Shown in pieces: positions 2,096-59,749 of a stretch of DNA of 64,000 nt. The notes beneath the pieces were generated by a model. The model was not told the origin of the DNA. It saw only the letters and a program-made list of their open reading frames with translations, and searched no databases. The DNA lies in the NCBI GenBank assembly GCA_017398145.1, contig JAFQHD010000108.1, forward strand, positions 4,456-68,455. Direction: 5' to 3'. The stretch is from Clostridia bacterium (GTDB lineage: Bacteria > Bacillota > Clostridia > Oscillospirales > CAG-272). How positions within the stretch are numbered: the first letter of the stretch is position 1; the number at the start of each line of letters is the position of its first letter. The translations under genes and the position numbers were made by a program.

Positions 2096-4110
2096 AAAAT
2101 ATCGGAAGAAGAATCTACATCGCTCTTGTATTTCTGTTCTTATATGCACCTATCGCGGTGCTTATAGTGAACTCCTTCAACGCTTCAAAGAGCCGTTCTG
2201 TATGGGGTGGGTTTACCTTTGACTGGTACCGAAAGCTGTTGATGGACGAGACCATTTTAAAATCCCTTGTTACCACTCTTGTGGTGGCACTTATCGCATC
2301 TGTTATTTCCACTATTCTCGGAACGGCTGCAGCTATAGGTATCTTCAATATGAAGAAGAACTGGCGTTCTGCTATTCTTAACATTTCTTATTTGCCTATT
2401 ATGAACCCCGAGATAGTAACCGGTGTATCCCTTATGCTTCTCTTCGTATCAATGAAGTTGAGCTTCGGATACCTGACCTTGATATTGGCTCACGTTTCTT
2501 TCTGTGTGCCTTACGTCATACTTAACGTCCTGCCGAAGCTGCGGCAGATGGACAAGCACCTTGTGGAGGCGGCGCTGGACCTTGGATGTGACCGCTGGCA
2601 GGCATTCTGGAAGGTGACGGTACCCGAGATAATGCCGGGTATAGTCACAGGCTTTCTTATGAGTATAACCTACTCGGTGGACGACTTTGTAATCAGCTAC
2701 TTTACCCACGGCTCAAAGGCACAGACTCTGTCTATCACCATCTATTCTATGACACGCCGCAAGGTCAGCCCCAAGGTAAATGCACTTTCTACTCTCATCT
2801 TTGTAGTAGTGCTTGTAGTCCTTATCATTGTAAATCTGGGCGATATCAGAAAGAACACTCCCAAAAAGCCCAAGAAAAAGGGAAGAGGCAAAAAAGCGGC
2901 GGCTATGGCTATGACCGTGCTTTGTCTTGTACCGTGCCTTGCCTTCGGCATATCCGCAGACTCCCCCTACTCCGACTCTGTTGACTGGAATAAGTTCCGT
3001 GATCAGGGTGTGGAGATAAATGTTTATAACTGGGGTGAATATATCTCGGTAGACGAGGGCGAGGAGGGTGACTTTGACACCATTGCCGAGTTTGAAAAGC
3101 TCACAGGCATCAATGTAAACTACACTACCTTTGCTTCAAACGAGGAGCTTTACGCCAAGCTTAAAAGCGGCGGCTTTACCTACGATGTTATCATCCCCTC
3201 CGACTATATGGCAGGCCGCCTTATAAACGAGGGAATGGTACAGAAGCTCAACTTTGAAAATATTCCCAATATACAGTGGATAGACGAAAGATTTTTAGGC
3301 TCTGCCTTTGATGTGAACAACGAGTATACCGTACCATATACATGGGGTTATGTAGGCATAATCTATAACAAGACTCTCGTTGATCCCGAGGATGACGTAA
3401 ACACATGGGATATCCTCTGGGACGAAAAGTATGCCAAGAACATACTCATGTTCAACAACTCCCGTGATGCCTTTGCCATAGCTCAGTTCAAGAACGGCTT
3501 TTCGGTAAACACGGCGGACGAGAGAGAGCTGGAGATCGCGGCAGATACTCTGCGCGAGCAGAAGCCCCTTGTACAGTCCTATGTCATGGACGAGATATTT
3601 GACAAGATGGGCGGCGGTGAGGCGGCTCTTGCGCCCTATTATGCAGGTGACGCGGTAACCATGATGGCGGACAACCCCGATCTTGCATTCGCTATCCCCC
3701 GTGAAGGCTATAACTACTTTATCGACTCTATGTGCATCCCCACTACCGCGACCCATAAGGAAGCGGCTGAGATGTTCATCAACTTTATGTGCGAAACAGA
3801 GGTTGCACTTCGCAATATAGAATATATCTGTTACTCCACCCCTCACACAGGAGCTCTTGAGCGCCTTGACGAAGAGGTAAGGAACAACCCCATATTCTAC
3901 CCCTCGGACGAGGATCTGGTGGTAGCCGAAGCATACAACGCTCTGCCCGAGGATGCTACCAAGACCATCGACTCCCTATGGACCGATATAATGAGTAACA
4001 CAGGCTCTATACCCTGGCTTACTCCCGTATTTCTCGTAGTATGTATCGGTGTTGCATCCTATATCAACATCCGCCGCATTCAGAAAAACAAGCGTAAAAA
4101 TGAAATCTGA
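2092..4110 (+). CDS. Fused PotC permease / PotD polyamine-binding protein with an extra C-terminal TM helix
   Basis: GTG start overlaps the potB TGA (GTGA). Residues 1-260 are permease-like (EAALDLGCD loop). A basic linker and hydrophobic segment follow, then a PotD-like periplasmic binding domain of about 330 aa, then a terminal hydrophobic helix (WLTPVFLVVCIGVASYI). Confidence 0.8.
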   Translation: MKNIGRRIYIALVFLFLYAPIAVLIVNSFNASKSRSVWGGFTFDWYRKLLMDETILKSLVTTLVVALIASVISTILGTAAAIGIFNMKKNWRSAILNISYLPIMNPEIVTGVSLMLLFVSMKLSFGYLTLILAHVSFCVPYVILNVLPKLRQMDKHLVEAALDLGCDRWQAFWKVTVPEIMPGIVTGFLMSITYSVDDFVISYFTHGSKAQTLSITIYSMTRRKVSPKVNALSTLIFVVVLVVLIIVNLGDIRKNTPKKPKKKGRGKKAAAMAMTVLCLVPCLAFGISADSPYSDSVDWNKFRDQGVEINVYNWGEYISVDEGEEGDFDTIAEFEKLTGINVNYTTFASNEELYAKLKSGGFTYDVIIPSDYMAGRLINEGMVQKLNFENIPNIQWIDERFLGSAFDVNNEYTVPYTWGYVGIIYNKTLVDPEDDVNTWDILWDEKYAKNILMFNNSRDAFAIAQFKNGFSVNTADERELEIAADTLREQKPLVQSYVMDEIFDKMGGGEAALAPYYAGDAVTMMADNPDLAFAIPREGYNYFIDSMCIPTTATHKEAAEMFINFMCETEVALRNIEYICYSTPHTGALERLDEEVRNNPIFYPSDEDLVVAEAYNALPEDATKTIDSLWTDIMSNTGSIPWLTPVFLVVCIGVASYINIRRIQKNKRKNEI

Positions 4111-4144: not shown

Positions 4145-4221
4145 TTATTTCCTATTGATTATAATATAATTTTGTGATACAATGTTATCTGTATGATTAT
4201 GTTTATTCAGGAGAAATGATA

Positions 4222-5943
4222 ATGAGTATTATCGATTTAAGGCTTAGTTTAGCGGCTTGTCTCAAGAAGGGAATTGACAGTATCAACCCCGATGCAGCAC
4301 TTACCGCCTCTGAAATTGCCGATATGTTCGAGTATCCCCCGGACGATAAGATGGGCGATCTGGCTCTGCCCTGCTTCAAGTTCGCAAAGACACTTCGCAA
4401 GGCTCCCCCTATGATAGCAAACGAGCTGTCCGCATCTCTCAAGGATGCAGAGGGCGTAGCCGAGGTACAGGTAGCAGGCGGCTATCTGAATATATTTATC
4501 GAGAGAGCTTCCTTTGCCCGTGACACCGTGGCAGAGGTAAACTCTAAGGGTGAAGCCTACGGCAGGCTGACTGTGGGTGAAGGCAAGACCGTAGTTCTTG
4601 ACTATTCTTCTCCCAATGTGGCAAAGCCCTTCCATATAGGACATTTAGGAACCACCGTTATCGGTCACTCCCTTAAGATGCTTCACGAGTTTGCAGGCTA
4701 TAAGTGCGTCGGTGTCAATCATTTAGGTGACTGGGGTACCCAGTTCGGTAAGCTTATCGTTGCATACCGCAAGTGGGGTAATAAAGAAGAGATCGAGGCA
4801 GGCGGCATTGATGCCCTCGTTGCCATCTACGTTAAGTTCCACGAGGAAGCAGAAAAGGACGAGACCCTTGAGGATCAGGCAAGAGCAGAGTTCACTGCTC
4901 TTGAGGCAGGGGATGAAGAAAATCTTAAGCTCTGGAAATGGTTTATCGAGATCTCTATCGAGGAATACAAGAAGACATATGCACAGCTCGGTATCGAGTT
5001 TGACAGCTATGCAGGCGAGAGCTTCTACTATGACAAGTGTGCTCCCGTTATCGAAAAGCTGAAGGATGCGGCTATTACAAAGGTAGACGACGGCGCTACC
5101 ATAGTTGATCTCTCCGAATACAATATGCCTCCCTGTCTTATACTTAAGCGTGACGGCTCCACCATCTACGCTACCCGTGATATTGCAGCGGCTCTCTACC
5201 GTAAGGAGACCTACGACTTTGACAAGTGTATATATGTAACAAGTGCAGGTCAAAGCCTCCACTTTGCACAGTGGTTCAAGGTGGTTGAGATGATGGGCTA
5301 TGACTGGGCAGACCGTCTTATCCATGTTCCCTCCGGTACAGTTAGCATCGACGATGCAAAGCTTGCTACCCGTACAGGTAAAGTTGTGCTGATAAAGGAT
5401 CTCTTCGCTCAGGCGACAGATAAGGTTCTTGGTATCATGAACGAAAAGAATCCCGATCTTGAGGGCAAGGAAGCTGTTGCCGAGGCGGTAGGCGTTGGTG
5501 CGATAGTATTCCACTATCTGTCCAACAACCGTATCAAGGATATCAACTTCAAGCTTGACGATGTTCTTAAGTTCGACGGCAACACAGGTCCTTACTGTCA
5601 GTACACCTACGCACGTTGTGCTTCTATCCTCAGCAAGGCAGGAAGCGTTGCGGACAACTGCGATTACACAGATATAACCGAAGAGGAATATCAGCTTGCA
5701 AAGACTCTTGCAAGGTTCCCCGAGGCGGTAGAATCTGCTCTTGAGTCAAGCGAGCCTATGATGATAACCCGTTACATCCTCGATGTTGCGACAGCATTCA
5801 ACCGTTTCTATCACGAGTGTCAGATACTGTCAGCCGAGGATGAAAAGATAAAAGAACGCCGTGTGGCGCTTACCAATGCAGCACATACAGTTTTAGGCTC
5901 AGCCTTTGGTCTTATCTGCATGAAGAAAACAGAAAAAATATAA
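4222..5943 (+). CDS. argS: Arginine--tRNA ligase
   Basis: ORF 4174..5943. HIGH-type motif (PFHIGHLG) and ArgS N-terminal and anticodon-binding regions. AGGAG at 4209-4213 favours the ATG at 4222. Confidence 0.92.
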   Translation: MSIIDLRLSLAACLKKGIDSINPDAALTASEIADMFEYPPDDKMGDLALPCFKFAKTLRKAPPMIANELSASLKDAEGVAEVQVAGGYLNIFIERASFARDTVAEVNSKGEAYGRLTVGEGKTVVLDYSSPNVAKPFHIGHLGTTVIGHSLKMLHEFAGYKCVGVNHLGDWGTQFGKLIVAYRKWGNKEEIEAGGIDALVAIYVKFHEEAEKDETLEDQARAEFTALEAGDEENLKLWKWFIEISIEEYKKTYAQLGIEFDSYAGESFYYDKCAPVIEKLKDAAITKVDDGATIVDLSEYNMPPCLILKRDGSTIYATRDIAAALYRKETYDFDKCIYVTSAGQSLHFAQWFKVVEMMGYDWADRLIHVPSGTVSIDDAKLATRTGKVVLIKDLFAQATDKVLGIMNEKNPDLEGKEAVAEAVGVGAIVFHYLSNNRIKDINFKLDDVLKFDGNTGPYCQYTYARCASILSKAGSVADNCDYTDITEEEYQLAKTLARFPEAVESALESSEPMMITRYILDVATAFNRFYHECQILSAEDEKIKERRVALTNAAHTVLGSAFGLICMKKTEKI

Positions 5944-6182
5944 TGAATTGACATCTTCGATATCATGAATTGCCGTTGGCATGAATTGTGCTACGCACAT
6001 GAATTGCACCTTTGGTGCATTAAGGAAACTTTTCGGCAAGCCGAAAACTGATTTAATTATAATTGATTTTTGCTATAGCAAAAATCTTCCTTAATGAAAG
6101 ACCTCGTCTTTCAATTCATGACGGTGTGCCGTCAATTCATGATGACAAAGTCATCAATTCATGCACCTACGGCGCAATTCAT
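5943..6182. repeat. Symmetric array: 4x CATGAATTG, central hairpins, 4x CAATTCATG, with eight palindromic variable spacers
   Basis: ATGAATTG at 5943, 5965, 5981 and 5999. CAATTCAT at 6112, 6133, 6155 and 6175. Every spacer is a 4-8 bp stem with a 3-4 nt loop. Central inverted repeat 6018-6027 / 6087-6096. Confidence 0.9.
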
Positions 6183-6219
6183 ACTAAAATAAATAATAAT
6201 TTTAAGGAGAATATAAATC

Positions 6220-6942
6220 ATGTCCGGACATTCCAAATGGAGTAACATTAAGCACAAGAAAGAAAAGAGTGACGCTGCCAAGGCGAAAATATTTACCAAG
6301 GTAGGTAAGGAGATCGCAGTTGCGGTTAAGGCAGGCGGTCCCGACCCCGTTTCCAACTCCAAGCTTAAGGAGCTTATCGCAAAGGCTAAGTCCTTAAACG
6401 TTCCCAATGACAATATCGACCGTATCATCAAGAAGTCCAGCGGTGCTGATGCCGTTGATTACGAAGAGGTAGTATACGAGGGCTACGGTCCCAGCGGCGT
6501 TGCAGTTATCGTTGAGGCTACCACCGATAACCGTAACCGTACAGGCGGTAATGTAAGACACTTCTTTGATAAGTACGGCGGAAACCTCGGTCAGAGCGGC
6601 TGCGTGTCCTTTATGTTCGAGGATAAGGGCGTTATCATCGTTGAGAGAGAAAGCGGTGCAGACGAGGACAAGCTGATGGAGGATTCTCTTGAGGCAGGTG
6701 CAGAGGACTTCGTTGCTGACGAAGAGGTATTTGAGATCTACACCGTTCCCGCTGACCTTATGGCAGTTAAGGAAGAGCTTGAGGCTAAGGGCTACGTTAT
6801 CGCGTCTGCCGAGAAGGACAAGATCCCCTCTAACTACGTTACCCTCACCGACGAAGAGGATATCAAGAAGATGAACCTTCTTATCGAGCATCTCGAAGAG
6901 GACGACGATATCTCCGAGATCTACCACAACTGGGAAGAATAA
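6220..6942 (+). CDS. yebC: YebC/PmpR family DNA-binding transcriptional regulator
   Basis: N-terminus MSGHSKWSNIKHKK is diagnostic of the family. AAGGAG RBS upstream. Confidence 0.92.
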   Translation: MSGHSKWSNIKHKKEKSDAAKAKIFTKVGKEIAVAVKAGGPDPVSNSKLKELIAKAKSLNVPNDNIDRIIKKSSGADAVDYEEVVYEGYGPSGVAVIVEATTDNRNRTGGNVRHFFDKYGGNLGQSGCVSFMFEDKGVIIVERESGADEDKLMEDSLEAGAEDFVADEEVFEIYTVPADLMAVKEELEAKGYVIASAEKDKIPSNYVTLTDEEDIKKMNLLIEHLEEDDDISEIYHNWEE

Positions 6943-6944
6943 TT

Positions 6945-6968
6945 TACAGGAGGCGAAAGCCTCCTGTA
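6945..6968 (+). terminator. Hairpin terminator after yebC
   Basis: TACAGGAGGC-gaaa-GCCTCCTGTA, a 10-bp stem. The downstream T-run is weak. Confidence 0.7.
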
Positions 6969-6972
6969 ATTA

Positions 6973-7057
6973 AATGCAGAATGCAAAATGCAAAATGCAG
7001 AATTGAGGAGATTTTTGTTGCATTAATGCAACAAAAATTTCATTACATTATGTAATG
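6973..7057 (+). repeat. Heptad array (AATGCAG/AATGCAA x4), then TTGAGGAG, a 11-bp hairpin and a second palindrome
   Basis: 7-nt tandem repeats at 6973-7002. Hairpin ATTTTTGTTGC-attaat-GCAACAAAAAT at 7011-7038. CATTACA-tta-TGTAATG at 7041-7057. Confidence 0.85.
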
Positions 7058-14835: not shown

Positions 14836-14896
14836 AACAAAATCCCTTCCGACATTCTCTAATAACAGAGTATGACAGAAGAGATATTTTGTGATA

Positions 14897-15793
14897 TTAC
14901 TTTTTATCCCATGCATGAATGTTCTTAAGTATCCCGTGAAGCTCAAGGAAACTTTCGTGTCGGCTCTTCGGTATCTTACCCTCTGATAGAGCCTCAAGTA
15001 TGGCACAGCCCTCTTCCTTTGTATGAGTGCATTTTGTGTATTTACACTCGCCTAAATAAGGCCTGAACTCGCGGAAGGTATAGGGAAGCTCATCTACGGT
15101 GTAATCATCGTATATGGTGGGATCAAGCATAGAAAATCCGGGAGTGTCCGCTATAAAACCGTTATAGCTTTCGTCACCGAAAAGGTCGTTGAGGGAGTAC
15201 AGTTCAACATGACGGGTGGTATGCTTGCCGCGCTGTATCTTGCGGCTCACGTCTCCCGTAGCAAGTCCCAGAGCGGGGAAGAGAGCATTAAGAAGAGTGG
15301 ACTTGCCTACCCCTGAAGCTCCCGAGAACGCAGATATCCTGCCGCGGCATTTTTCCTTGAAGAATTCGAGCAGCTCCGCTTTGTCGGAATCGGGGTCTGT
15401 TACAAACACATCCACACCGATGGAGGAATATATTTCTTTCAGCTCATCTGCTCTTTTGGGGTCAAGGTCATTCTTGGTTACTATGACCACAGGCTCGATT
15501 CCCTTGTGGTCGGCGATAGATATCATCTTGTCAAGGGTTGCGGTGACGGGCATAGGCTTTTTTGCTGCCGCTACTATAAAGAGGATATCAAGATTTGCCA
15601 TAGGGGGACGGATAAGAGTGTTTCTTCGGTCGATGATATCAACGATACAGTCATCCTCTATCACAACTCTGTCACCTACGTAGGGAGTTATATTTTCGTG
15701 GCGGAAAACACCTCTTGCACGGCATTGAACAATATTACCGTCGCAGAGGATATCATAGAGACCGCCGAGACCTTTTATAATAATACCTTCCAT
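14897..15793 (-). CDS. rsgA: Ribosome small-subunit-dependent GTPase A
   Basis: N-terminal OB domain, circularly permuted GTPase (TKNDL ... GASGVGKST) and a C-terminal zinc knuckle (CKYTKCTHTKEEGC). Confidence 0.9.
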   Translation of the reverse strand: MEGIIIKGLGGLYDILCDGNIVQCRARGVFRHENITPYVGDRVVIEDDCIVDIIDRRNTLIRPPMANLDILFIVAAAKKPMPVTATLDKMISIADHKGIEPVVIVTKNDLDPKRADELKEIYSSIGVDVFVTDPDSDKAELLEFFKEKCRGRISAFSGASGVGKSTLLNALFPALGLATGDVSRKIQRGKHTTRHVELYSLNDLFGDESYNGFIADTPGFSMLDPTIYDDYTVDELPYTFREFRPYLGECKYTKCTHTKEEGCAILEALSEGKIPKSRHESFLELHGILKNIHAWDKK

Positions 15794-15798
15794 ATAAA

Positions 15799-15848
15799 AA
15801 TTCTCAATTCTTAATTCTCAATTTAAGGTTACTTTTGCCCTGCAAAAG
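15799..15848 (+). repeat. Heptad array (AATTCTC AATTCTT AATTCTC AATTTAA) plus a hairpin, immediately upstream of the rsgA start
   Basis: 7-nt repeats at 15799-15826. Hairpin CTTTTGC-cct-GCAAAAG at 15832-15848. Confidence 0.8.
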
Positions 15849-15901
15849 CTTCATATATATTATATTTATAACAAAAATATTTGTCAAGTAAAGGAAAAAA
15901 G

Positions 15902-19760: not shown

Positions 19761-19820
19761 AATTCTCAATTCTCAATTCGTAATTAAATGTGAAAAGTCG
19801 GTTCATTTGAACCGACTTTT
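19761..19820. repeat. Heptad array (AATTCTC x2, AATTCGT, AATTAAA) plus a bidirectional terminator hairpin
   Basis: 7-nt repeats at 19761-19788. Hairpin AAAAGTCGGTTCA-tt-TGAACCGACTTTT at 19793-19820. Confidence 0.85.
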
Positions 19821-24404: not shown

Positions 24405-24480
24405 TGGTCGAAGTGTGGAGATTCGAACTCCAGGCCTCCAGTACCCGAAACTGGCGCGCTACCAACTGCGCTACACCTCG
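24405..24480 (-). tRNA. tRNA-Pro (anticodon CGG), CCA encoded
   Basis: Manual cloverleaf: acceptor CGAGGTG/CACTTCG, D stem GCGC/GCGC, anticodon stem CCAGT/ACTGG with loop TTCGGGT, T arm TGGAG-TTCGAAT-CTCCA. 76 nt. Confidence 0.9.
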
Positions 24481-24509: not shown

Positions 24510-24657
24510 CCGAAACCGGCGCGCTTCCTGTTGCAACATCAGCTCTGCTGTCGCAAGCGTTGTTTGCTCTGCAATCGCTGTGTTACTGCCACTCCTCACC
24601 CTCGCTGCATCCGACACTGTCGGCGCTCGGGATCGTCCCCAACTGCGCTACACCTCG
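24510..24657 (-). pseudogene. tRNA-Pro 5'-half copy (positions 1-19 and about 21-37) split by a 113-nt GC-rich insertion, with no T arm
   Basis: 24639-24657 matches the first 19 nt of the tRNA exactly. 24510-24525 matches AGCGCGCCAGTTTCGG at 15 of 16 positions. Nothing corresponds to the 3' half. Confidence 0.7.
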
Positions 24658-24671
24658 ATGTTGCGGATAAC

Positions 24672-33363: not shown

Positions 33364-34204
33364 AAAGAACCGTATAGAGGGTGGCACTCTCTATCTTGTA
33401 GCCACACCTATAGGTAACCTCTCCGACCTTTCGGACAGAGCGTATAAGGTGTTAAGCGAGGTTGATTTTATCGCCGCAGAGGATACAAGAAACACAGGCA
33501 AGCTCTTATCCGCCATAGGTATATCTAAGTCTATGGTATCCTACTACGAGCATAACAAAAAGTCTAGCGGCGAGCATATCTTAAAAAGACTTCTTAAGAG
33601 ACAGAGCTGTGCTCTTGTGACCGATGCGGGAACTCCCGCCATCAGCGACCCGGGCGAGGATATCGTACGTGACTGCATAGAGGCAGGTATAAAGGTGACA
33701 AGCGTTCCCGGAGCTGCGGCAGTTATAGTTGCTCTTACTCTTTCGGGCATGAACACCCGCCGCTTTGTCTTTGAGGGATTTTTGCCTGTCAAGGGAAAAG
33801 AACGGAAGGAAATGCTGACCGAATTATCCACCGAAAAGCGTACTCTCGTTCTCTACGAAGCACCTCATAAATTAAAGAATACCTTAGACGATCTCCTTGA
33901 ATATTTCGGCTCCGACCGTCGAATAGCTCTCTGCCGTGAGCTTACAAAGCTCAATGAAGAGGTAATGCGCTGTACTTTATCCGATGCCGTGGAGTATTAC
34001 GGTCAAAACGACCCCAGAGGCGAGTATGTTCTCGTCATAGAAGGAGCAAAAGGGGAAAGCATTGGTGCGTTTTGGCAGGATATGGCTGTAGATACTCATA
34101 TCGAATACTATATCTCTCAGGGATTGAAGAAGATGGATGCCATAAAGCAGGTTGCTAAAGACCGAGGGGTTGCGAAGAACGAGATATATAAGCAGACAAT
34201 ATAA
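33344..34204 (+). CDS. rsmI: 16S rRNA (cytidine1402-2'-O)-methyltransferase
   Basis: Tetrapyrrole-methylase fold with the characteristic N-terminus LYLVATPIGNLSD and AEDTR. Confidence 0.9.
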   Translation: MSSQSNEKNRIEGGTLYLVATPIGNLSDLSDRAYKVLSEVDFIAAEDTRNTGKLLSAIGISKSMVSYYEHNKKSSGEHILKRLLKRQSCALVTDAGTPAISDPGEDIVRDCIEAGIKVTSVPGAAAVIVALTLSGMNTRRFVFEGFLPVKGKERKEMLTELSTEKRTLVLYEAPHKLKNTLDDLLEYFGSDRRIALCRELTKLNEEVMRCTLSDAVEYYGQNDPRGEYVLVIEGAKGESIGAFWQDMAVDTHIEYYISQGLKKMDAIKQVAKDRGVAKNEIYKQTI

Positions 34205-34270
34205 GTGCAAAGTGCAAAATGCAAAGTGCAAAGTTTAGGAGGATTTCCGTACTTTGGTACGGAAATCTCC
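34205..34270 (+). repeat. Heptad array (GTGCAAA x3 / ATGCAAA), then TTTAGGAGG and a 13-15 bp hairpin
   Basis: 7-nt repeats at 34205-34232. Hairpin 34238-34270 (GGAGGATTTCCGTAC-tttg-GTACGGAAATCTCC). It fills the rsmI/dapA convergent gap. Confidence 0.85.
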
Positions 34271-36287: not shown

Positions 36288-39200
36288 TTATTCTACCGTG
36301 AAATTAACACGGTCGTATGTTCCGTCAATATATCTTACGTAGAGCGTATATTCACCTGCAGGGAGAGCTGCGCCATAGGTGTAGATGTTGCTGTCACCTA
36401 ACTTTGCGCTCGTCATACCGTAGTAGAGGTTGTTCTTGACCTCTCTGTAGGTGGAGTGTATTCCCTTGCCTATGTAGAGATCCTTGATATTTTCAAGGTC
36501 GCAGATATACGTACGTTTACCGTCGGATACGATTGAAGGAGTATCTGCAAGGGTTACCTTCACGCTTGCCTTTCTGAAGCTGCCGTTGTAGCTGCCGATA
36601 GTCAGAGCCGCAAACTCAGCGCCTGTTCCTTCGTAAGTGATGTCGGTAATATTACAGCCGTCAAAGGTTCCCTGTGCTATCTCAGTTACGTCCTTTGTTA
36701 TCTTAACGCTTGTGACGTTGGTTCCTCTGAACGCCTTTGCGGCGTTGTCGGTAGCAAGAGTTACCTCGCCCGTGAGGTTTGTACAGCCGTCAAACGCCTG
36801 TGTCAGATCCTCGATGCCGATAAGCTCGGGAGCGGAGGTAAGAGCAGTACACTTATAGAAGGCACCCTTAAGTATCTTAACACTTTCGGGAAGCTCGGGA
36901 GTCTCTGTAAGAGAACTGCATCCCCAGAATGCGTAGGTCATATTCTCTACTCCTTCGGGTATCGCGGGAGCAGATGTGAGAGCCGTACAATTCTTAAAGG
37001 TATTGTAAAGCACCTTTACACCCTCGGGAATTGCGAGAGCCTCGGTCATATTGGTACAGCCTGCAAAGGTCTTATAGAGCTGTGTTACGGGAAGTCCGTT
37101 GACCTCTGCTTCTATTGCACCGTAGGAGCTCAGAGTCTTGTCGTTTACTACTGCGTTCCAACCCTCGGGTGCGCCTGTTGCGTGATTGCTGTAATAGGTG
37201 TAGGTGTAATCACCGATAACCACCTGCTGACCGTCGGTGGGCTGAGCCGCACCGCAGGCACATACGCCGTCAATATAGATATGTCCGGTCACAGGCTCCT
37301 TTTCGGTATTGGAATACTCGTATACGTAATTTTCTTCACAACAGCCGTTTATGATATTACGGTATACGATATCGCCCTCTGCGTTGAGAGTGGGATATTC
37401 GTCTGTACCTATAGTCTGCGTCCAAACGGTAGGGATCACGGTTCCTATATATTCCCAGGTCTCCTCGTCGTAAACGTCCTCCTCGGGCTGAGCCGACTGG
37501 AGTAACCAGGTTATTTCACCGCTTGCTAACTGCTCTGCAGTTCTGCCGCCTTTGTCGTTGGCTTCAATCGCAAGATAATAGCTGTTGGTAAAGTCTTGTG
37601 CTATCTGGTTCTTCGTCGAGAAGTAGCCTGACTCAACGATACCGAGATTAAGACAGTTGGCTACGGGGTTGCCGTCACTGTTTCCTGCAATACCGCCCGT
37701 GTTGATAGTACCTGTAATATGTCCGGTATTGATACAGTTTACGATCTCACCGCTGTACATATTGCCGACGATACCGCCGGTGGAGCTGCCGGAATGATAG
37801 AAGCTTACGTCACCTGTATTGCTTGACTTGTAGATACCGCCGCCTATAAGGTAACCCACGAGACCGCCCATATCTCCCGATCCCACTACGGTCAGATCCG
37901 AGTGACAGTTGGTGATCACACTTTCGGCATTGGCAATAAGCGAGCCGACTTCACCGTCTGCTCTTAAATAACCGTTGGTGAGCTTGATGTTGGAAATGGG
38001 GTAATTATACATTGTGTTACCGAAAAGACCTGCCATATCCGCCTCGGGATCGTTCATATAAAGACCGCTTACCGTATGGTTGCGACCGTCAAAGGAACCG
38101 GTATAATAAGCATAGCCTTTACCGATGGGAGTCCAACTGCGAAGCTCGACTGCAGTGTCCTCTGCAGAGTAGCTTCCGTCCTGAGCAAATGTATAGCCGG
38201 GGTTAAGGTCGATGTCGGCTGTAAGCACTGCGTCACCGGTCACGGTGTTCCAGGTGTTAACGCTTCTTGCAAACCAGAAGAGATGTCCCGCCTTGGAAAT
38301 TTCGTAACGGTAGTTTTCTTCATCGAGATAAGCAGGCTCGTAGCCGCCGCATATTACGCAGAAGCCTTCTGCATCAAAGCTGTGGGCTTCGGTAGTGCTG
38401 TCGCACGCACCGCATACGCATACAAGCCAATGCTCGGTGTCGTTAAAATCATATTCAGCAAAATCGTGAGGCTCGGTGATTATCTCGCTGTCACAGCATA
38501 CGTGATATAAAGTATGAGTTCCCGTTTCCTCGTCGTAGAGGTAATAGGTCTCCTCGCTTGTATGGTTGTTCATATCGTAATCACCGAAGGAGTTGCCGCA
38601 GGTGGTACAATATTGTCTGTTCTGACAATCTGCCTCGTGTCCTGAGCAGGGCTGAGTTTCGGTGACGTTATACATCTCACATACCTCGCGTGTACAAACG
38701 TATCTGATATGATAAGCTTCACCCTCTACCGCCGTCCACTCAGAGGGAACGTGATAGCTGTCCTCTTCACTTAAAAGAGGAGTGTTGGAGTAATACATAT
38801 TCGTATTACCGCAGTCGTAGCCTGCGTAAACGGTTGCACCGCCAAGCACGGGGTAAGGATCGGTTCCGATGCTCTGTCCCCAGCTTTCGCCCAGAAGGTA
38901 AGCAACCTCTCCCGACTCAAACTGTTCAGAGGTCTTTGCACCGTTATCGTTTTCGGTATCTGCAAGATAATAGCTGCCCTCGGGACATATGCCGCTTGTG
39001 ATACCGCCGATCTCGCCGCTGTCGGTTACGGCGTTTGCCATACTGAAGCAGTTGTTTATCGAAGCCGAGCTGTCATTCATATTGGTACGCGCACCGACGA
39101 TACCGCCGACACCGCTGACGCCGCTGACATCGGTATTAATAACGAAGCAGTTTGTGATCTCGGATGCAGAGATACCTGCAATACCGCCTACCGAGTTTTC

Positions 39201-41948
39201 ACCGTTGATATAGGAATTGATTATACCGAGGTCTTTTATGATACCGCCCTCGCCCAGTACTCCGATAAAGCCGGTATAATATTCGTCGCGGTCAATATAG
39301 AGACCGGATACGGTGTGGCCGTTACCGTCAAAGGTACCGCCGTATCTGAAATTGTAAAAGTCATAGCCGATGGGAGTCCACTCTTCAAAGGTAACTCCCT
39401 CGGTATCAAAGGGTATGTCGTTTATAACGATATCAGCCATAAGTCTGCCGTTGACTCTTGCAACGCCGTCGTCGTAAACGTAACGGTTTATAAAGTCGGC
39501 AAACCAGTAGAGCTGACCCTTGTTGTATATCTCGTAATATCCGTCTTCTGCTAAGTGTGCAGGCTGTAAGCCGCATATCTCGCAGTAGCCGTCTTCGCTG
39601 TAGTGTTCCTCGGTGTTATACGCTTTTTCGTTGGTGTAGCCTATAGCTTCACCTGTTGAACAGAGCTTACCGTAATATACGGTATCTCCTTCAAATACGG
39701 GATATGCATCCTCACCTAAGGTCTGCTTCCAGCTTCCGTTATGGCTTTCACCGTTAAGGATCCAGGTCATCTCACCCGAAGTAAACTGCTCTGCAGTTCT
39801 GCCGCCTTCCGCCGTTTCGGTATCCGAGAGGTAGTAGCAGTTATCGACCGTAGGACTGTTATATCTGTAAGCTGCTATCTGCGCAACGTTATGATATCCT
39901 TCAACACTTCCGATGTTATAGCAGTTTTGCACGCCGGACTTGTTGTGATAACCTACGATGCCGCCTGCATCTGATTCATAATTCGCGGTCGTTCCCACAA
40001 CACTGCCGCTGTTATAGCAATCAGCGATCTCAGTACGGTAGTTGCTGCCTGCAATACCGCCTAAGTGGTACCATCCGGTCACCAGCCCCGTGTTATAGCA
40101 GCGGTATATCTTTGCTGTTGCCTGATAACCCGTGATACCGCCCGCACCTCCGCCTATGCCGGAGACAACGGTTGAGTTGCTGTGACAGTTATATACGGTG
40201 CTTGAGCTCTGTCCCGCTATAGCTCCTACGCTTTGGTTACCGCAAAAGTAAGAATCGGTAACGCCGAGATTGCGGATAACGCTTCCCGAGTGGGTATATT
40301 TGAACAGACCTATCTTATTATGGTTTGGATCATTATAGTATAATCCCTTGATATCATAGCCCCGTCCGTCAAAGATGCCTCTGAACTCATCAATGGGTGT
40401 CCATTCAAAGAGATTCGAGCCGTCTCCGATAAGCTCGCCGTTTTCATCTATTACCTTGCTGTTTACGGTAACGTCGTTGGTGAGAACGGCGTTTGCCCTT
40501 GGATTTTTCAATTCGTTGGGGAGAGTACCGTTTACGAGTGCCGCAAACCAATAGAGCTGACCTTCGTCACTTATCTCATATACGGAATCCTTTGCTCCGT
40601 CGTCGTTGACGTCGTATTTATCGGTAGTCAGCTCAGCGGGCCAAAATGTGATACCGTAATCGCCTATCTCGGTACCGATAAGATCGCTTGTGTTTCCTTT
40701 GATAAGACCGTAGTTTATGATCCTTCCGTTGTTGACGATATTGCCTTGAACGTCAAGGGTAACACCCTCTTCGATAAAGAGAATCTGATCTGCACCTATT
40801 GTCAGGGTATTGTCCTTGTTGACCGTCAGATCCTCGTAAAGGAAATATTTGTCCCGGTAAAGCGCGCCGTTCCCGTTCTGAAATACTATACCTCCGGTGA
40901 TAGAGGTCGTTACCGCAGAGCCATTTCCACTCTTGCCGATAGGTTCAGCGTCGGCTCCCGAGGTTGCAACAACGATTCCGCCCGTAATATTAACGTTACC
41001 CGGCGCCGTGTCTGATTTGGCAGGGCCGCTGCCGATAGCTGCACTGGCCCATAACGATGTAGCGCCCGACGCATTTACCCTGCCGCCGGATATGGTTATA
41101 TTACCGCAGGAACCCATGTAACCTCCGCCTATTGCGGCTCCCGCCCAACTAAACGTAGCCGTAGCAGTTACGTTGCCTCCGGTTACGGTTATGGTTCCGC
41201 CGGATCCTTCCTTACCGCCGCCGATGCCTGCGCCTGAGCCGTCGGACCGTGCAGTTATATTACCGCCGTTTATGGTGATGCTCTCACCGTTGCCCCCGTC
41301 GCCTCCGCCGCCGATAGCAGAGCCGTATAAAGAAATCGTTGCAACGACCGTACCGCCGTTTATGGTTATGGTACCGCTGTTGCCTCGCCAGCCTCCGCCG
41401 ATAGCAGCAGCGTGACTATTACCGTTAGATGTAACGGTACCTCCGTTTATGGTAATGGTTCCGCCGTTGCCGTCTTTACCACCGCCGATGCCTGCACCTG
41501 TACTGCTGGCCTGTACGGTTATGTTGCCACCGTTTATTGTGATGACCCCCGCACCGTTTTGGTTGTTGCCGCCGATAGCCGCCTGGTCATCGCCGGCACC
41601 GGCAACGATCTTTCCTTGCTTACTCGGATCTGCCGAAACGGCATAGATCGTAAGGCTGTTTCCCGAGTTTACTGCAATACCTGCGTTCGCCGTAAGAACG
41701 GCGTTATCTGCAAGGATGATATTACAGCTGCCGCTTACCGATATACGGGTGTCTGTAGTGAGGCTTCCCCTCACCAGCCACCACCCCTCGGAAAGGGTAG
41801 CTTCGCCTGCATAGACCTTATAGTCGGTGCAGGTCTGCTGATTTCCGTCTGCATCGATATACGTAATACCGTCTGCCGCAAAAGCGTAAAAGGGTATCAT
41901 ACCGATGAGCATTACTGCCGCAAGTAAAATACTGATAAGCTTTTTCAT
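36288..41948 (-). CDS. Giant secreted surface protein (1886 aa): beta-solenoid repeats, GLUG-motif modules, Cys-cluster linkers, C-terminal BspA-type LRRs
   Basis: Signal peptide MKKLISILLAAVMLIGMIPFYAFA. About 29-aa Gly-rich repeats (ITINGGxxT...GGG). Four modules with (Q)LYWFAxxVN followed by repeated GGIAG/GGIVG (GLUG-like). C-terminal LRR_5-like repeats (FxxCTxLTSAPxIPEGV). No LPXTG or SLH anchor seen. Confidence 0.85.
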   Translation of the reverse strand: MKKLISILLAAVMLIGMIPFYAFAADGITYIDADGNQQTCTDYKVYAGEATLSEGWWLVRGSLTTDTRISVSGSCNIILADNAVLTANAGIAVNSGNSLTIYAVSADPSKQGKIVAGAGDDQAAIGGNNQNGAGVITINGGNITVQASSTGAGIGGGKDGNGGTITINGGTVTSNGNSHAAAIGGGWRGNSGTITINGGTVVATISLYGSAIGGGGDGGNGESITINGGNITARSDGSGAGIGGGKEGSGGTITVTGGNVTATATFSWAGAAIGGGYMGSCGNITISGGRVNASGATSLWASAAIGSGPAKSDTAPGNVNITGGIVVATSGADAEPIGKSGNGSAVTTSITGGIVFQNGNGALYRDKYFLYEDLTVNKDNTLTIGADQILFIEEGVTLDVQGNIVNNGRIINYGLIKGNTSDLIGTEIGDYGITFWPAELTTDKYDVNDDGAKDSVYEISDEGQLYWFAALVNGTLPNELKNPRANAVLTNDVTVNSKVIDENGELIGDGSNLFEWTPIDEFRGIFDGRGYDIKGLYYNDPNHNKIGLFKYTHSGSVIRNLGVTDSYFCGNQSVGAIAGQSSSTVYNCHSNSTVVSGIGGGAGGITGYQATAKIYRCYNTGLVTGWYHLGGIAGSNYRTEIADCYNSGSVVGTTANYESDAGGIVGYHNKSGVQNCYNIGSVEGYHNVAQIAAYRYNSPTVDNCYYLSDTETAEGGRTAEQFTSGEMTWILNGESHNGSWKQTLGEDAYPVFEGDTVYYGKLCSTGEAIGYTNEKAYNTEEHYSEDGYCEICGLQPAHLAEDGYYEIYNKGQLYWFADFINRYVYDDGVARVNGRLMADIVINDIPFDTEGVTFEEWTPIGYDFYNFRYGGTFDGNGHTVSGLYIDRDEYYTGFIGVLGEGGIIKDLGIINSYINGENSVGGIAGISASEITNCFVINTDVSGVSGVGGIVGARTNMNDSSASINNCFSMANAVTDSGEIGGITSGICPEGSYYLADTENDNGAKTSEQFESGEVAYLLGESWGQSIGTDPYPVLGGATVYAGYDCGNTNMYYSNTPLLSEEDSYHVPSEWTAVEGEAYHIRYVCTREVCEMYNVTETQPCSGHEADCQNRQYCTTCGNSFGDYDMNNHTSEETYYLYDEETGTHTLYHVCCDSEIITEPHDFAEYDFNDTEHWLVCVCGACDSTTEAHSFDAEGFCVICGGYEPAYLDEENYRYEISKAGHLFWFARSVNTWNTVTGDAVLTADIDLNPGYTFAQDGSYSAEDTAVELRSWTPIGKGYAYYTGSFDGRNHTVSGLYMNDPEADMAGLFGNTMYNYPISNIKLTNGYLRADGEVGSLIANAESVITNCHSDLTVVGSGDMGGLVGYLIGGGIYKSSNTGDVSFYHSGSSTGGIVGNMYSGEIVNCINTGHITGTINTGGIAGNSDGNPVANCLNLGIVESGYFSTKNQIAQDFTNSYYLAIEANDKGGRTAEQLASGEITWLLQSAQPEEDVYDEETWEYIGTVIPTVWTQTIGTDEYPTLNAEGDIVYRNIINGCCEENYVYEYSNTEKEPVTGHIYIDGVCACGAAQPTDGQQVVIGDYTYTYYSNHATGAPEGWNAVVNDKTLSSYGAIEAEVNGLPVTQLYKTFAGCTNMTEALAIPEGVKVLYNTFKNCTALTSAPAIPEGVENMTYAFWGCSSLTETPELPESVKILKGAFYKCTALTSAPELIGIEDLTQAFDGCTNLTGEVTLATDNAAKAFRGTNVTSVKITKDVTEIAQGTFDGCNITDITYEGTGAEFAALTIGSYNGSFRKASVKVTLADTPSIVSDGKRTYICDLENIKDLYIGKGIHSTYREVKNNLYYGMTSAKLGDSNIYTYGAALPAGEYTLYVRYIDGTYDRVNFTVE

Positions 41949-54525: not shown

Positions 54526-55299
54526 ATGGAAATTATCGATACCCACGCTCATTACGATGACAGCAGGTTCGATGGTAATAGAGATGAGCTTATAGCCGAT
54601 GTTTTAAACATCGGCTATATCCGAAATATCATCAACTCATCCTATTCTATCGATTCCGCAAAGGTAGCAAGAGAGCTTTCAAGAAAATATCCGCAGTTCT
54701 ATTTTACCGCAGGCATACACCCCCACGACAGCGGAAAGGCAGGGGATAGGGATCGAGCACTTTTTGAGCTTGAGGGACTGCTGCGTGACCCTAAATGTGT
54801 TGCGCTCGGCGAGATAGGTCTTGACTATCATTACGATTTTTCAGACCGTGACACACAGAAAAAATGGTTTGAGTGGCAGATGCAGTTAGCTGACCGTCTG
54901 GGCGTTCCCGTTGCCATACACGACCGTGAGGCTCACGGCGACTGTATGGATATGGTAAGAAAATATCCCGAGGTCATAGGCGAGTTTCATTCCTTCTCAG
55001 GTTCGGCAGAGATGGCAAAGGAGCTGGTCAAGAGAGGGTGGTATATCTCCTTTTCCGGAGTAATAACCTTCAAGAACGCTTCAAAGATTCTTGAAGCGGT
55101 AAAGGCAGTACCCCTTGACCGCATAATGATAGAAACAGACGCTCCCTACCTTGCTCCCGTACCCAAGAGAGGTAAGGACAACAACTCCGCCTATATGAAG
55201 TACACAGCAGAGGCGGCAGCCAACGTGCTGGGTATGGACGTAGAGGAATTCTGTGCGGCAACCACCGAGAATGCCAAGAGACTTTTCGGCATTAAGTGA
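54526..55299 (+). CDS. tatD: TatD-family metal-dependent hydrolase
   Basis: DTHAH N-terminal motif, plus later HDRE and ETDAPY motifs. Confidence 0.9.
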   Translation: MEIIDTHAHYDDSRFDGNRDELIADVLNIGYIRNIINSSYSIDSAKVARELSRKYPQFYFTAGIHPHDSGKAGDRDRALFELEGLLRDPKCVALGEIGLDYHYDFSDRDTQKKWFEWQMQLADRLGVPVAIHDREAHGDCMDMVRKYPEVIGEFHSFSGSAEMAKELVKRGWYISFSGVITFKNASKILEAVKAVPLDRIMIETDAPYLAPVPKRGKDNNSAYMKYTAEAAANVLGMDVEEFCAATTENAKRLFGIK

Positions 55300-55331
55300 A
55301 TAGAGAATAGTGAATAGAGAATAGTGAATAA
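55297..55331 (+). repeat. Heptad array TGAATAG/AGAATAG x5 bridging the tatD stop and the next start
   Basis: TGAATAGAGAATAGTGAATAGAGAATAGTGAATAA. The tatD TGA is the first repeat unit. Confidence 0.9.
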
Positions 55332-57929: not shown

Positions 57930-57944
57930 TTTACTTTCTCCAAT

Positions 57945-58110
57945 CGTTATTCACTATTCGTTATTCTCTATTCACTATTCACTCTTAAAAAGCATCAGTG
58001 AATAATGAATAGTGAATAGTGAATAGATAATAGTGATGGTTGAAAACTGTTGCTTTAATGCAACAGTTTTCTTCCTTAATTTTGCATTTTTTATTTTGCA
58101 TTTTGCATTT
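57945..58110. repeat. Composite element B: inverted heptad arms, TGGTT, 12-bp hairpin, TTCCTTAAT, (TTTGCAT)n
   Basis: CTATT-type arm 57945-57983 and GAATAG-type arm 57997-58036. Hairpin GAAAACTGTTGC-tttaat-GCAACAGTTTTC at 58042-58071. TTTGCAT repeats at 58081-58110. Confidence 0.9.
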
Positions 58111-58120
58111 TTACAATGCT

Positions 58121-59572
58121 TTACGCATTGTAAATGGTTGCCGCAGTATCGCCGCCCATGCCGGTCCAGTTGGTGTGGAAGAACTCGCCTCTGGGGCAGT
58201 CAACTCTCTCGTAGGTGTGAGCACCGAAGTAGTCTCACTGAGCCTGGAGCAGGTTTGCGGGAAGTCTGTCACAGCGGTAGCCGTCATAGTAGGTGAGAGC
58301 TGTAGCCATAGCGGGAGCGGGAATACCGTTGGTAAGAGCTGCCGCACATACACGTCTCCAGCCTGCCTGAGCCTCGTCGATGATACCCTTGAAGTAGGGG
58401 TCAAGAAGGAGGTTGGTAAGCTCGGGATTAGCGTCAAATGCTTCCTTGATCTTACCGAGGAACACGCTTCTGATGATACAGCCGCCGCGCCACATAAGAG
58501 CTATGCCGCCGTAGTTGAGGTTCCAGCCGTAGGTCTTAGCTGCGGTTCTCATAAGAGCGTAGCCCTGAGCGTAGGAGATGATCTTGGATGCAAAGAGAGC
58601 GGACTTGATATCCTTGATAAATGCTTCCTTGTCACCCTCGAACTTAGGCTCGGGACCGGTTAAGATCTTGCTTGCCGCAACTCTCTCTTCTTTGATAGCA
58701 GACAGACATCTGGAGTAAACAGCCTCACCGATAAGAGTCAGCGGAACACCCTCGTCAAGAGATGCGATAGCAGTCCACTTACCTGTACCCTTCTGTCCTG
58801 CGGTGTCAAGGATTTTTTCTACTATGGGCTCACCGTCTTCATCTTTATAAGCTAAAATATCACGGGTGATCTCGATAAGGTAACTGTCAAGCTCCTCCTC
58901 GTTCCACTTAGCAAATACCTCGTGCATTTCGTCGCAGGACATACCGAGGTAATTCTTCATTATCTGATAAGCTTCGCAGATAAGCTCCATATCACCGTAC
59001 TCGATACCGTTGTGTACCATCTTAACGAAGTGACCTGCGCCGCCTTCGCCAACCCAGTCACAGCAAGGAGAGCCGTCCTCTACCTTTGCACAGATAGCCT
59101 GGAAGATAGGCTTAACAAAGGGCCATGCTGCGGGAGAGCCGCCGGGCATCATGCTGGGGCCGTTAAGTGCGCCCTCTTCACCGCCGGAAACACCGGTACC
59201 GATGTAGAGAAGACCCTTAGACTCAACGTACTGCGTTCTTCTGATAGTGTCGGGAAAGTGGGAGTTACCGCCGTCGATAATGATATCGCCTTCTTCAAGG
59301 AGGGGGATAAGGGTCTCGATCATAGCATCAACAGCAGAGCCCGCCTTGATCATCATCATAACCTTACGGGGCTTTTCGAGAGAAGCAACAAGCTCCTCAA
59401 GGCTGTATGTGCCGACTATATTTTTGCCGGCAGCACGACCTTCAACGAAGTTCTTTACCTTTTCTGTAGTTCTGTTGTATACGGATACGGTAAAGCCCTT
59501 GCTTTCCATATTCATAACAAGATTTTCGCCCATTACGGCGAGGCCGATAAGACCGATGTCTGACTTTTTCAT
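58121..59572 (-). pseudogene. gnd: 6-phosphogluconate dehydrogenase (decarboxylating) interrupted by one in-frame TGA (58235-58237)
   Basis: 445 codons (GLIGLAVMGENL ... LPANLLQAQ), then TGA, then 37 more in-frame codons ([37 protein letters not shown]) that continue the conserved Gnd C-terminus. Confidence 0.85.
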
Positions 59573-59600: not shown

Positions 59601-59749
59601 TTATTCGGTTATTAACTATTCACTATTCGTTATTCACTATTCACTAACTATCGGTTTTATATAACAAGTGAATAGTGAATAGAGAATAGATAATAGTGAA
59701 TAGTGATGGTTGAAAACCGCCAAAGCGGTTTTCTTCCTTAATTTTGCAT
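59601..59749. repeat. Composite element C, with the same architecture as element B
   Basis: Arms at 59601-59646 and 59668-59706. Conserved GTGATGGTTGAAAAC. Hairpin GAAAACCGC-caaa-GCGGTTTTC at 59712-59733 (stem differs from B, pairing kept). TTCCTTAATTTTGCAT at 59734-59749 overlaps the PHP stop codon. Confidence 0.9.

Follow-up and report, generated by a model that had tools for sequence, protein, structure and literature searches.

Short structured repeats lying between genes, among them repetitive extragenic palindromic (REP) sequences, bacterial interspersed mosaic elements (BIMEs), BOX elements and MITEs (miniature transposable elements with inverted repeats), shape operon expression, genome plasticity and phage-host exchange. 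Some MITEs are conserved between phages and their hosts (PMC11602168), intergenic tandem heptamers are known as the TAACTGA repeats of Beggiatoaceae, Cyanobacteria and Bacteroidetes (PMC4679880) and as the cyanobacterial short tandemly repeated repetitive (STRR) sequences, and mini-hairpins are found at the G4, St-1 and alpha3 primase sites, at RSF1010 ssiA and at the N4 hairpin promoters (PMC13037366); mini-hairpin DNA is bound poorly by single-stranded-DNA-binding protein (SSB), according to a 2026 review (PMC13037366). Structured repeats are almost unstudied in the uncultured Clostridia that dominate rumen and gut. As a case study, we consider a block of mini-hairpins between argS and yebC, at positions 5943-6182 of a 64,000-nucleotide stretch of contig JAFQHD010000108.1 (the window), which comes from an uncultured Clostridia/Oscillospiraceae lineage of metagenome-assembled genomes (MAGs) from the guts of ruminants and other animals.

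This block is one copy of a multi-copy, two-armed intergenic repeat family present in rumen and gut Oscillospirales-type Clostridia and in phages. Its membership of that family, its insertion polymorphism, the constraint on its pairing, the polarity of its loops and its location between co-directional genes are established by the comparisons below. It is a structured intergenic repeat element whose grammar, a constant linker alternating with variable hairpins, is to our knowledge apparently undescribed: full-text literature searches returned heptamer repeats, REP sequences with their associated tyrosine transposases (RAYT), MITEs and mini-hairpin DNA, but no description of constant-linker/variable-hairpin arrays.

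Architecture and insertion of the argS-yebC block

The repeated unit reads ATGAATTG on the plus strand at 5943, 5965, 5981 and 5999 and as the reverse complement CAATTCAT at 6112, 6133, 6155 and 6175; these eight matches, all within 5943-6182, are the only ones in the whole 64 kb, where 2.76 were expected. A preliminary description of the window had reported these positions and their two-fold symmetry, which our search bears out, and had called the 9-mer (in this element, the family linker CATGAATTG) invariant, which is true of the eight copies of ATGAATTG/CAATTCAT but not of the base before ATGAATTG in the first linker, an A and not a C. The linkers are 8-9 nt long, with the 5-nt cores TGAAT in the left arm and ATTCA in the right arm, and the spacers between them (8-16 nt) are self-complementary with loops of 3-4 nt. 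A spacing of about two helical turns, also proposed earlier, is seen in the right arm (21, 22 and 20) but not in the left (22, 16 and 18), and helical phasing is therefore not constant.

As had been described, all eight variable segments are hairpins, with 47 of 49 stem positions paired, and the two mismatches already reported, C.A at 5949-5965 and A.C at 6162-6176, are both G.T on the minus strand. When the constant TG...CA base is left out, 31 of 33 positions pair, against a maximum of 19 pairs both in 20,000 segment shuffles and in 20,000 random genomic draws. The two strands fold much more favourably than their shuffles, with z = -8.1 and -7.8 as RNA and z = -9.1 for both strands as DNA. 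The parts are listed below, the core (box pair, two hairpins and dyad palindrome) lying where it had first been placed; L-numbers (L001 and so on) designate the retrieved contigs and loci that we compared with the window.

5944-6199, no strand: whole inserted block, relative to the empty spacer TATAA|TTTTAAGGAG of L006, L009-L011, L133, L214 and L217
5943-6019, minus strand: left arm, four linkers (A/C)ATGAATTG, hairpins at 5949-5965, 5971-5981, 5987-5999 and 6005-6019
6018-6027, plus strand: Shine-Dalgarno (SD)-like box CATTAAGGAA, pairing with 6087-6096
6030-6047, no strand: core hairpin 1, TTTTCGGC-aa-GCCGAAAA, flanked by A/T tracts and terminator-like
6055-6064, no strand: dyad centre AATTATAATT
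6066-6085, no strand: core hairpin 2, ATTTTTGC-tata-GCAAAAAT
6087-6096, plus strand: anti-SD-like box TTCCTTAATG, inverted copy of 6018-6027
6095-6182, plus strand: right arm, four copies of CAATTCAT, hairpins at 6095-6113, 6119-6134, 6140-6156 and 6162-6176
6183-6199, no strand: A/T-rich tail ACTAAAATAAATAATAA, arriving with the insertion and common to L008 (right flank 97% identical)
6200-6222, plus strand: native yebC ribosome-binding site TTTTAAGGAG and start (ATG at 6220), outside the element, intact and unpaired
5788-6323, no strand: tract near-identical to L212, with 5979 as the sole differing base; homologous-recombination footprint

In the core, '(C)ATTAAGGAA + A/T-flanked hairpin' is present twice, in inverted orientation, on either side of the dyad AATTATAATT, which is not conserved in L008 (GATTGAAATT there) and is absent from the phage copies. 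The same box, as TTAAGGAAG, precedes hairpins at 58080-58040 and 59742-59705 on the minus strand of the window, and also in L007 and L165. Both core hairpins are terminator-like on the minus strand only, and none of the eight mini-hairpins is flagged by a scan for intrinsic terminators, whose hallmark is a G+C-rich stem running straight into a U tract on the transcribed strand. At the Rfam gathering threshold only tRNA passes in the window, and at permissive thresholds no score in 5850-6300 exceeds 18 bits. The block lies between argS (4174-5943), whose stop codon TAA (5941-5943) abuts the first linker, and a gene of the YebC/PmpR family (6220-6942), both on the plus strand, the neighbouring genes being a polyamine ABC-transporter gene, argS, yebC and an asparaginase gene; no cas, rep, par or integrase gene adjoins the element.

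Orthologous argS-yebC spacers, taken from strains whose YebC is 95-100% identical, show that the block is an insertion of about 256 bp, placed after the stop codon of argS and before the ribosome-binding site of yebC; as A/T-rich sequence (ATAA) stands at both junctions, its ends can be located only to within 1-5 nt. The spacer of L001-L003 is the same as that of the window, 276 bp, and that of L212 differs from it by one single-nucleotide polymorphism that breaks a pair, while L008 carries a diverged element of the same architecture with the linker (C)ATGAAA(A/T) and 5+4 hairpins. In L006, L009-L011, L133, L214 and L217 the spacer is empty, with 17-20 bp (TATAA-TTTTAAGGAG). Other strains have a hairpin followed by CCTCCATAA and (CTTTGCA)n or (TTCTGCA)n (L004/5, L020, L132, L216 and L213), or (GAATGCG)4, a hairpin, CTTCCTTAA and (CTCCTAA)4 (L007).

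The element is thus missing in strains with a YebC 98-99% identical, and all the spacer variants leave the downstream yebC ribosome-binding site intact, which excludes a regulatory region specific to argS/yebC. The preliminary description had suggested an argS terminator combined with a yebC control region, or binding by YebC, and neither suggestion withstands these empty sites and the occurrence of relatives in phage structural-gene operons; a locus-specific reading fails on a finding that the description itself had listed among those that would refute it, namely close relatives without the 9-mer and the hairpins.

The copy of L212 lies in a 536-bp tract that is identical to the window save for one base, whereas the flanking genes of L212 are only 82-94% identical, and we therefore conclude that this copy crossed lineages by homologous recombination. 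Transposition was rejected as its source, the identity extending into both genes, by about 155 bp in argS and by about 100 bp in yebC.

The heptads found at this site in other strains vary as well: the unit changes in concert between strains (CTTTGCA versus TTCTGCA in L004/L005, L020/L132/L216 and L213), and there are between about 1 and 4 copies of it, a behaviour like that of fast-evolving microsatellites. In L217 a gene for a 23S-rRNA-intervening-sequence protein (PF05635; 1835-2191) lies between yebC and the asparaginase gene.

Pairing, relatives and loop polarity

The comparison of the window with L008 shows that pairing is kept while the sequence drifts. Between the two, argS is 86% and yebC 94% identical, with 17-32% of third-codon positions differing, and the arms of the element are 59-70% and its core 84% identical. 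Over the five hairpins that align without gaps (36 pairs), 26 pairs are identical and 6 have changed on both sides with pairing retained; the other 4 are unpaired in one of the sequences, three of them being the outermost pair, which changes along with the linker. Core hairpin 1 reads CTTTCGCCC-ttg-GGGCGAAAG in L008, which adds two further compensatory changes. By contrast, 12 of 16 aligned loop positions differ, and all linkers change in concert (TGAAT in the window, TGAAA in L008). Phages L222/L251 and L275, about 85% identical, carry elements at the same three sites and also show compensatory changes (GCGC-aga-GCGC versus GTGC-tcc-GCAC, and GGAC/GTCC versus GGGC/GCCC).

Pooling 19 arrays with five linker types gave 81 inter-linker segments, 75 of them distinct, with stems of 3-8 bp and the hairpin spanning 93% of the segment. 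The preliminary description had proposed that spacers in related genomes be compared with shuffled ones, and the outcome agrees with its expectation of palindromes: 387 of 393 stem positions pair, against a shuffle mean of 193 and a maximum of 216. Loops turn over very fast, and both period 7 and arms of four units are favoured. These results support the view that the hairpins are selected or maintained as structures and that the linker alone is constant in sequence. Certain hairpins (GAAATC-N3-GATTTC, CCTTACGG and GAAGC-N3-GCTTC) recur in different elements, and the spacers are therefore related by descent and were not acquired independently.

Relatives were sought with a detector that requires a 6-mer recurring at least three times at 12-34-nt spacing, spacers that are all different, and a perfect hairpin covering at least 80% of each spacer. 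In the window it finds only the element locus, and in 636 kb of unrelated metagenome DNA no array; 80 related species (1.1 Mb) yielded three further arrays, whose linkers are different ones: L193 (ATATCGA x4 / TCGATAT x4, two-fold symmetric), L165 (linker ATATCAC, beside a hairpin and CTTCCTTAAC) and L145 (linker AGCTAAATT). The 636-kb control was reused from a metagenome scan with the core pattern AAGGAA..CTGATTT..GATTTTTGC, the 109 matches of which were all due to chance and served only as this negative control.

In the viral database IMG/VR, a scan for three copies of ATGAATTG at 7-19 nt from one another returned 69 loci (L218-L286), 8 of which are true family members with different palindromic spacers, namely L222 (three elements), L231, L244, L246, L250, L251, L275 (two elements) and L277. 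The other 61, many of them from giant-virus MAGs, hold tandem repeats of the ordinary kind, in which the spacers are identical, and were set aside as unrelated. L275 and L277 carry genes for the portal, the major head protein, terminase and replication and are genuine fragments of phages, and L277, which also bears a heptad module, shares 28 identical consecutive bases with the minus strand of the window (CCTTAATGCACCAAAGGTGCAATTCATG). Arrays with TCGATAT and AGCTAAATT occur in the viral contigs L306, L309/L393, L411 and L417, and the inverted two-arm layout is found again in L193, L222, L275, L277 and L306. The same 8-mer linker occurs in unrelated genomes that differ in G+C content, phages included.

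All clearly annotated copies sit between co-directional genes, from a stop codon to the next ribosome-binding site, for example upstream of a phage major head gene or downstream of a terminase gene. The linker can even supply the stop codon of the host gene, the upstream open reading frame (ORF) of L246 ending at the TGA inside the second ATGAATTG (3179-3198). Neither the window element nor a phage copy had a BLAST match among 50,697 GenBank phage records, and the loci examined included no autonomous copy and no parent insertion sequence.

The loops have a polarity, described here for the strand that shows the linker as ATGAATTG, TCGATAT or AGCTAAATT. Triloops close 54 of the 81 pooled segments. 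On the strand so named the apex is C-TNC-G in 26 cases and C-GNA-G in 2 (22 versus 2 with duplicates removed, p = 3.6e-5), and among the tetraloops 8 are the complement of GNRA and not one is GNRA itself; an apex of this kind is present in 28 of 48 triloops, compared with 2% of the triloop hairpins of control DNA. The opposite strand, with the linker CAATTCAT, ATATCGA or AATTTAGCT, carries C-GNA-G triloops and GNRA tetraloops, and L222 contains GCGAAGC and GCGAAAGC literally. C-GNA-G and GCGAAAGC are textbook hyper-stable DNA mini-hairpins. Because the two arms lie on opposite strands, this polarity is not a local compositional skew, and since it is unreadable in duplex DNA it is indicative of a form that is single-stranded. 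For L246 and L165, the two clean single-arm arrays, the favoured GNA strand is antisense to the flanking genes and would therefore be outside the mRNA. In the window copy, the loops on the CAATTCAT-reading strand are GAA and GTA in left-arm hairpins 1 and 3, and one right-arm hairpin is opposite. Taking the window element and L212 together, each of the three stem mismatches reads G.T on the minus strand, consistent with the same strand preference.

The window contains many tandem heptad arrays as well, mostly joined to an 'SD-like box + hairpin' as in the core of the element. Such modules, with the heptads AAATGCA, AATTCTC, AAGTGCA and AAAATGC, lie at 6944-7057, 15799-15850, 19761-19815, 34203-34270, 58040-58125 (minus strand) and 59705-59745 (minus strand), and their SD-like boxes are TTAAGGAAG, TTTAGGAGG or TTGAGGAG, followed by an A/T-flanked hairpin. 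Two hairpins of 35-40 bp, in which (TATTCAC)n pairs with (GTGAATA)n, are found at 57944-58036 and 59610-59706, each immediately upstream of a ribosome-binding site, that of a sugar kinase gene and that of gnd, in a minus-strand hexonate operon (LarA-like epimerase, PHP phosphatase, gnd and kinase). The heptad GTGAATA and the linker ATGAATTG have the core TGAAT in common, and the hairpin array can therefore be read as a heptad array with hairpins between its units; the link to the heptad/hairpin elements drawn in the preliminary description is upheld by this core and by the common 'TTAAGGAAG + hairpin' box.

Period 7 accounts for 29 tandem arrays in 1.3 Mb of relatives (L001-L022 and L132-L217) and for 2 in the 636 kb of control DNA, whereas periods 5, 6, 8 and 9 give 0-3 in the relatives. 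L133 (18464-18700; YebC 98% identical) carries a heptad element of 240 bp with two arms, (AGTTAGG)n-box-hairpin ... hairpin-CTTCCTTAA-(CTCCTAA)n, that is missing at the orthologous site of the window (14880-14905).

Several observations were made alongside. The 24 nt that separate a TatD-family gene from a radical-SAM gene are filled by a bare GTGAATA/GAGAATA array of 4.7 copies (55295-55330), and no canonical Shine-Dalgarno sequence can be made out there. In L145 (18340-18419), L275 (10058-10127) and L194 (11587-11694) the contig breaks off within a hairpin or heptad array; such repeats probably break short-read assemblies and would hence be under-represented in MAGs. The 5' 21 nt of a tRNA gene (24408-24480, minus strand; CCAACTGCGCTACACCTCGAT) recur about 180 bp away, at about 24640-24660, a recurrence that may have been left by an element that integrated or was excised, or may reflect a partial duplication. 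The window also has a very long ORF (1886 aa) at 36288-41948 on the minus strand.

Weighing the readings

The reading that we prefer, though tentatively, is that of a REP/BIME- or MITE-like structured element that acts as a single strand and whose linker is the site of a putative factor. Each arm is a row of usually four short hairpins, the stems of which are free to vary yet obliged to pair, separated by a constant family-specific 7-9-mer, and the second arm is the first one inverted; the window copy has gained a core, with two terminator-like hairpins and a pair of SD-like and anti-SD-like boxes, in the space between its arms. Once replication, recombination or transcription opens the duplex, the CAATTCAT-reading strand could snap into a compact row of hairpins that leaves the constant linker exposed, presenting four evenly spaced single-stranded sites to a sequence-specific factor, with a logic as in REP/BIME with RAYT (an HUH-family tyrosine transposase) and in hairpin-marked initiation signals of single-stranded DNA. 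Diversified stems would keep units from mispairing and the array from slippage collapse, and the two-fold symmetry would make the element functional in either orientation. The active form is probably single-stranded DNA rather than RNA, and we infer both the existence of a trans-acting factor and the way in which copies spread.

Several observations weigh against this preferred reading. All clearly annotated copies lie in transcribed spacers between cistrons, so that both arms are certainly present in mRNA, and GNRA loops are stable in RNA too. The sample of clean single-arm arrays in which the GNA strand is antisense amounts to two, the polarity of the window copy is weak (2 loops fit and 1 is opposite), and the order of the GNA and TNC arms about the centre differs among linker families. 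As for mobility, the only movement documented is the homologous-recombination tract of about 536 bp, not transposition; empty and filled sites have in common an A/T-rich similarity of 4-5 nt (ATAA), an ambiguous sign of a target-site duplication given that both junctions are A/T-rich; the phage copies compared have no common target-site duplication; and no transposase, RAYT or other cognate protein turned up among the annotated flanking genes in the 64 kb of the window and the other fragments of at most 20 kb, beyond which no search was possible. Finally, the palindromes of REP sequences are 20-40 nt long and conserved within a genome, whereas the stems considered here have 3-8 bp and 75 of 81 segments are distinct.

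A bolder form of this idea is possible, if doubtful: a class of strand-specific single-stranded signals in which rows of GNA/GNRA mini-hairpins present the constant heptamer to a dedicated putative enzyme or binding protein. On the same doubtful footing, each linker family might have a partner of its own, and phages and Clostridial hosts alike might use the signal. If true, this could be a mobile element of a new, hairpin-guided kind, or else a new signal for priming, processing or regulation that phage and host exchange.

It is rather unlikely, in our estimation, that the block is instead an RNA module between cistrons, that is, a compact multi-hairpin domain in polycistronic mRNA, whose UGAAU/AUUCA linkers could be RNase Y/E-type sites or whose hairpins could protect the resulting mRNA ends, or which as a structured spacer would bar Rho and RNases and keep translational coupling across the insertion. 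Such a module would explain why the annotated copies all lie between a stop codon and the next co-directional ribosome-binding site, why that of yebC remains unpaired in the predicted RNA fold, and why compensatory change preserves pairing; an RNA fold at z = -8, GNRA tetraloops as classic RNA caps, a two-fold symmetry that gives the same RNA architecture in either direction of insertion, and the SD-like and anti-SD-like boxes of bacterial copies also speak for it. On the other hand, triloops dominate (54/81) and a C-GNA-G apex confers no particular stability on RNA, the two single-arm arrays have their stable GNA/GNRA strand in antisense so that the mRNA gets the weaker UNC loops, the mismatches of the window copy are C.A on the sense strand (a tally of G.U against C.A that comprises a small number of mismatches only), and Rfam gives no match. 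Triloop dominance, the GNA apex and the antisense strand count weakly against the RNA module.

A neutral mutational by-product appears improbable. Here hairpin-seeded palindrome growth and 7-nt replication slippage around terminator hairpins would produce a functionless array, and template switching in quasi-palindromes would keep the stems perfect without selection. The lineage is indeed rich in period-7 arrays (29 versus 0-3 for periods 5, 6, 8 and 9), which usually flank hairpins and whose heptads vary in concert and in copy number between strains, and templated correction can give double 'compensatory' changes in one step. It is difficult, however, to reconcile with this origin the same 8-mer linker in unrelated genomes of different G+C, phages included, the retention of three copies by compact phage genomes over about 15% divergence, and one apex motif at a fixed polarity to the linker, which palindrome correction alone cannot yield.

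That the block is an array of protein sites on duplex DNA (an iteron, a parC-like centromere, or an operator of YebC or another protein) is very improbable, even though the right-arm spacing is 20-22 bp, each arm has four sites in inverted arrangement, and the YebC/PmpR family is named DNA-binding transcriptional regulators in NCBIfam. The left arm has spacings of 22, 16 and 18, palindromic spacers and loop polarity are meaningless for duplex binding, strains with a 98-99% identical YebC are without the element, its relatives lie in phage late operons and other unrelated loci, and par and rep genes are not adjacent; the in-phase iteron or centromere of the preliminary description is abandoned on the same grounds, the spacing over both arms being 16-22 bp and palindromic spacers being unneeded. 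Last, a CRISPR-like (short palindromic repeats, clustered and regularly interspaced) recording array with independently acquired palindromic spacers, the 'inverse CRISPR' proposed at first, has short constant repeats alternating with different spacers in its favour, and is scarcely credible, as the repeats have 8-9 nt, the spacers have 8-16 nt and are self-complementary, the adjoining genes are not cas genes, and, decisively, the spacers are homologous between elements and strains, differing by point and compensatory substitutions.

Other candidates were tried and rejected: a promoter at the dyad (TATAAT), which has no -35 box, is not conserved in L008 or the phage copies and is not flagged by a scan; a Chi-like site, the 8-mer being nowhere else in the window; a HutP/TRAP-type triplet array, UAG being present in some heptads only; a stop-codon trap, the TGA of the ATGAATTG linker being lacking in other linker families; and transposon termini formed by TG...CA, which are not common to other families.

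The clean grammar of the family (linker, pairing stems, about four units per arm and polar loops) makes it easy to search for computationally and to test with oligonucleotides. If a cognate factor exists, the linker families would be a ready-made specificity set, and shared copies could tie uncultured phages to their hosts.

Comparison with known repeat systems

The element is readily distinguished from three well-defined arrays. CRISPR arrays have 23-55-nt repeats and spacers of 26-72 nt that are not palindromic, usually together with a leader or cas genes, as against repeats of 8-9 nt, self-complementary spacers of 8-16 nt and housekeeping genes as neighbours here; integron attC sites are palindromes of 57-141 nt with RYYYAAC/GTTRRRY, whereas the units of the element have 16-22 nt and no GTTRRRY cores; and iterons or parC have a fixed helical phase and an adjacent Rep or ParR gene, as opposed to a spacing of 16-22 bp here.

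BOX elements of Streptococcus pneumoniae (boxA-boxB(n)-boxC) are closer, being modular, intergenic and strongly folding, with variable internal units, in Firmicutes, and able to affect the expression of neighbours. Their modules, however, are 45-59 nt long, conserved in sequence and without the logic of constant linker and variable hairpin, and have no sequence relation to the element. The mini-hairpin signals (PMC13037366) have the identical apex C-GNA-G and strand specificity, ssiA and ssiB lying on opposite strands, but these are single conserved sites at origins or promoters, whereas the element forms multi-copy rows of four variable hairpins with a constant linker between cistrons.

Intergenic heptamer repeats resemble the sister modules of the window in their lineage-specific 7-nt units, present in 2-6 copies just upstream of start codons; they are suspected SSB sites, and the sister modules are plain heptads with the related unit GTGAATA. 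The tandem-heptamer pattern is found in these modules but not at 5943-6182, where different hairpins stand between the units and the array has an inverted duplicate.

Like MITEs, the element is small (130-300 bp) and non-coding, has inverted arms, is present or absent at orthologous sites and is shared between hosts and viruses. With respect to the linkers its two arms (5943-6019 and 6095-6182) are inverted, forming a periodic motif-plus-hairpin array and not a conserved terminal inverted repeat, and neither a parent insertion sequence nor transposition is seen for it.

Among the systems to which the block had first been likened, REP/BIME, taken as a structure-specific array on single-stranded DNA or RNA, is the closest analogy. 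The constant part of the element is a linker between hairpins, set in regular rows of about four units and found in phages, unlike REP, and its flanking motifs are CATGAATTG, TCGATAT, AGCTAAATT and ATATCAC and not the GTAG head. REP/BIME sequences, known from Proteobacteria, are extragenic, lying mostly between co-directional or convergent genes and clustered in direct and inverted orientation, an arrangement that the element displays too. Both place short hairpins beside a short constant motif, with recognition of one DNA strand in the case of REP, and both form several families per clade, each with a motif of its own; both are also carried in mRNA, in which REP sequences can stabilise upstream messages.

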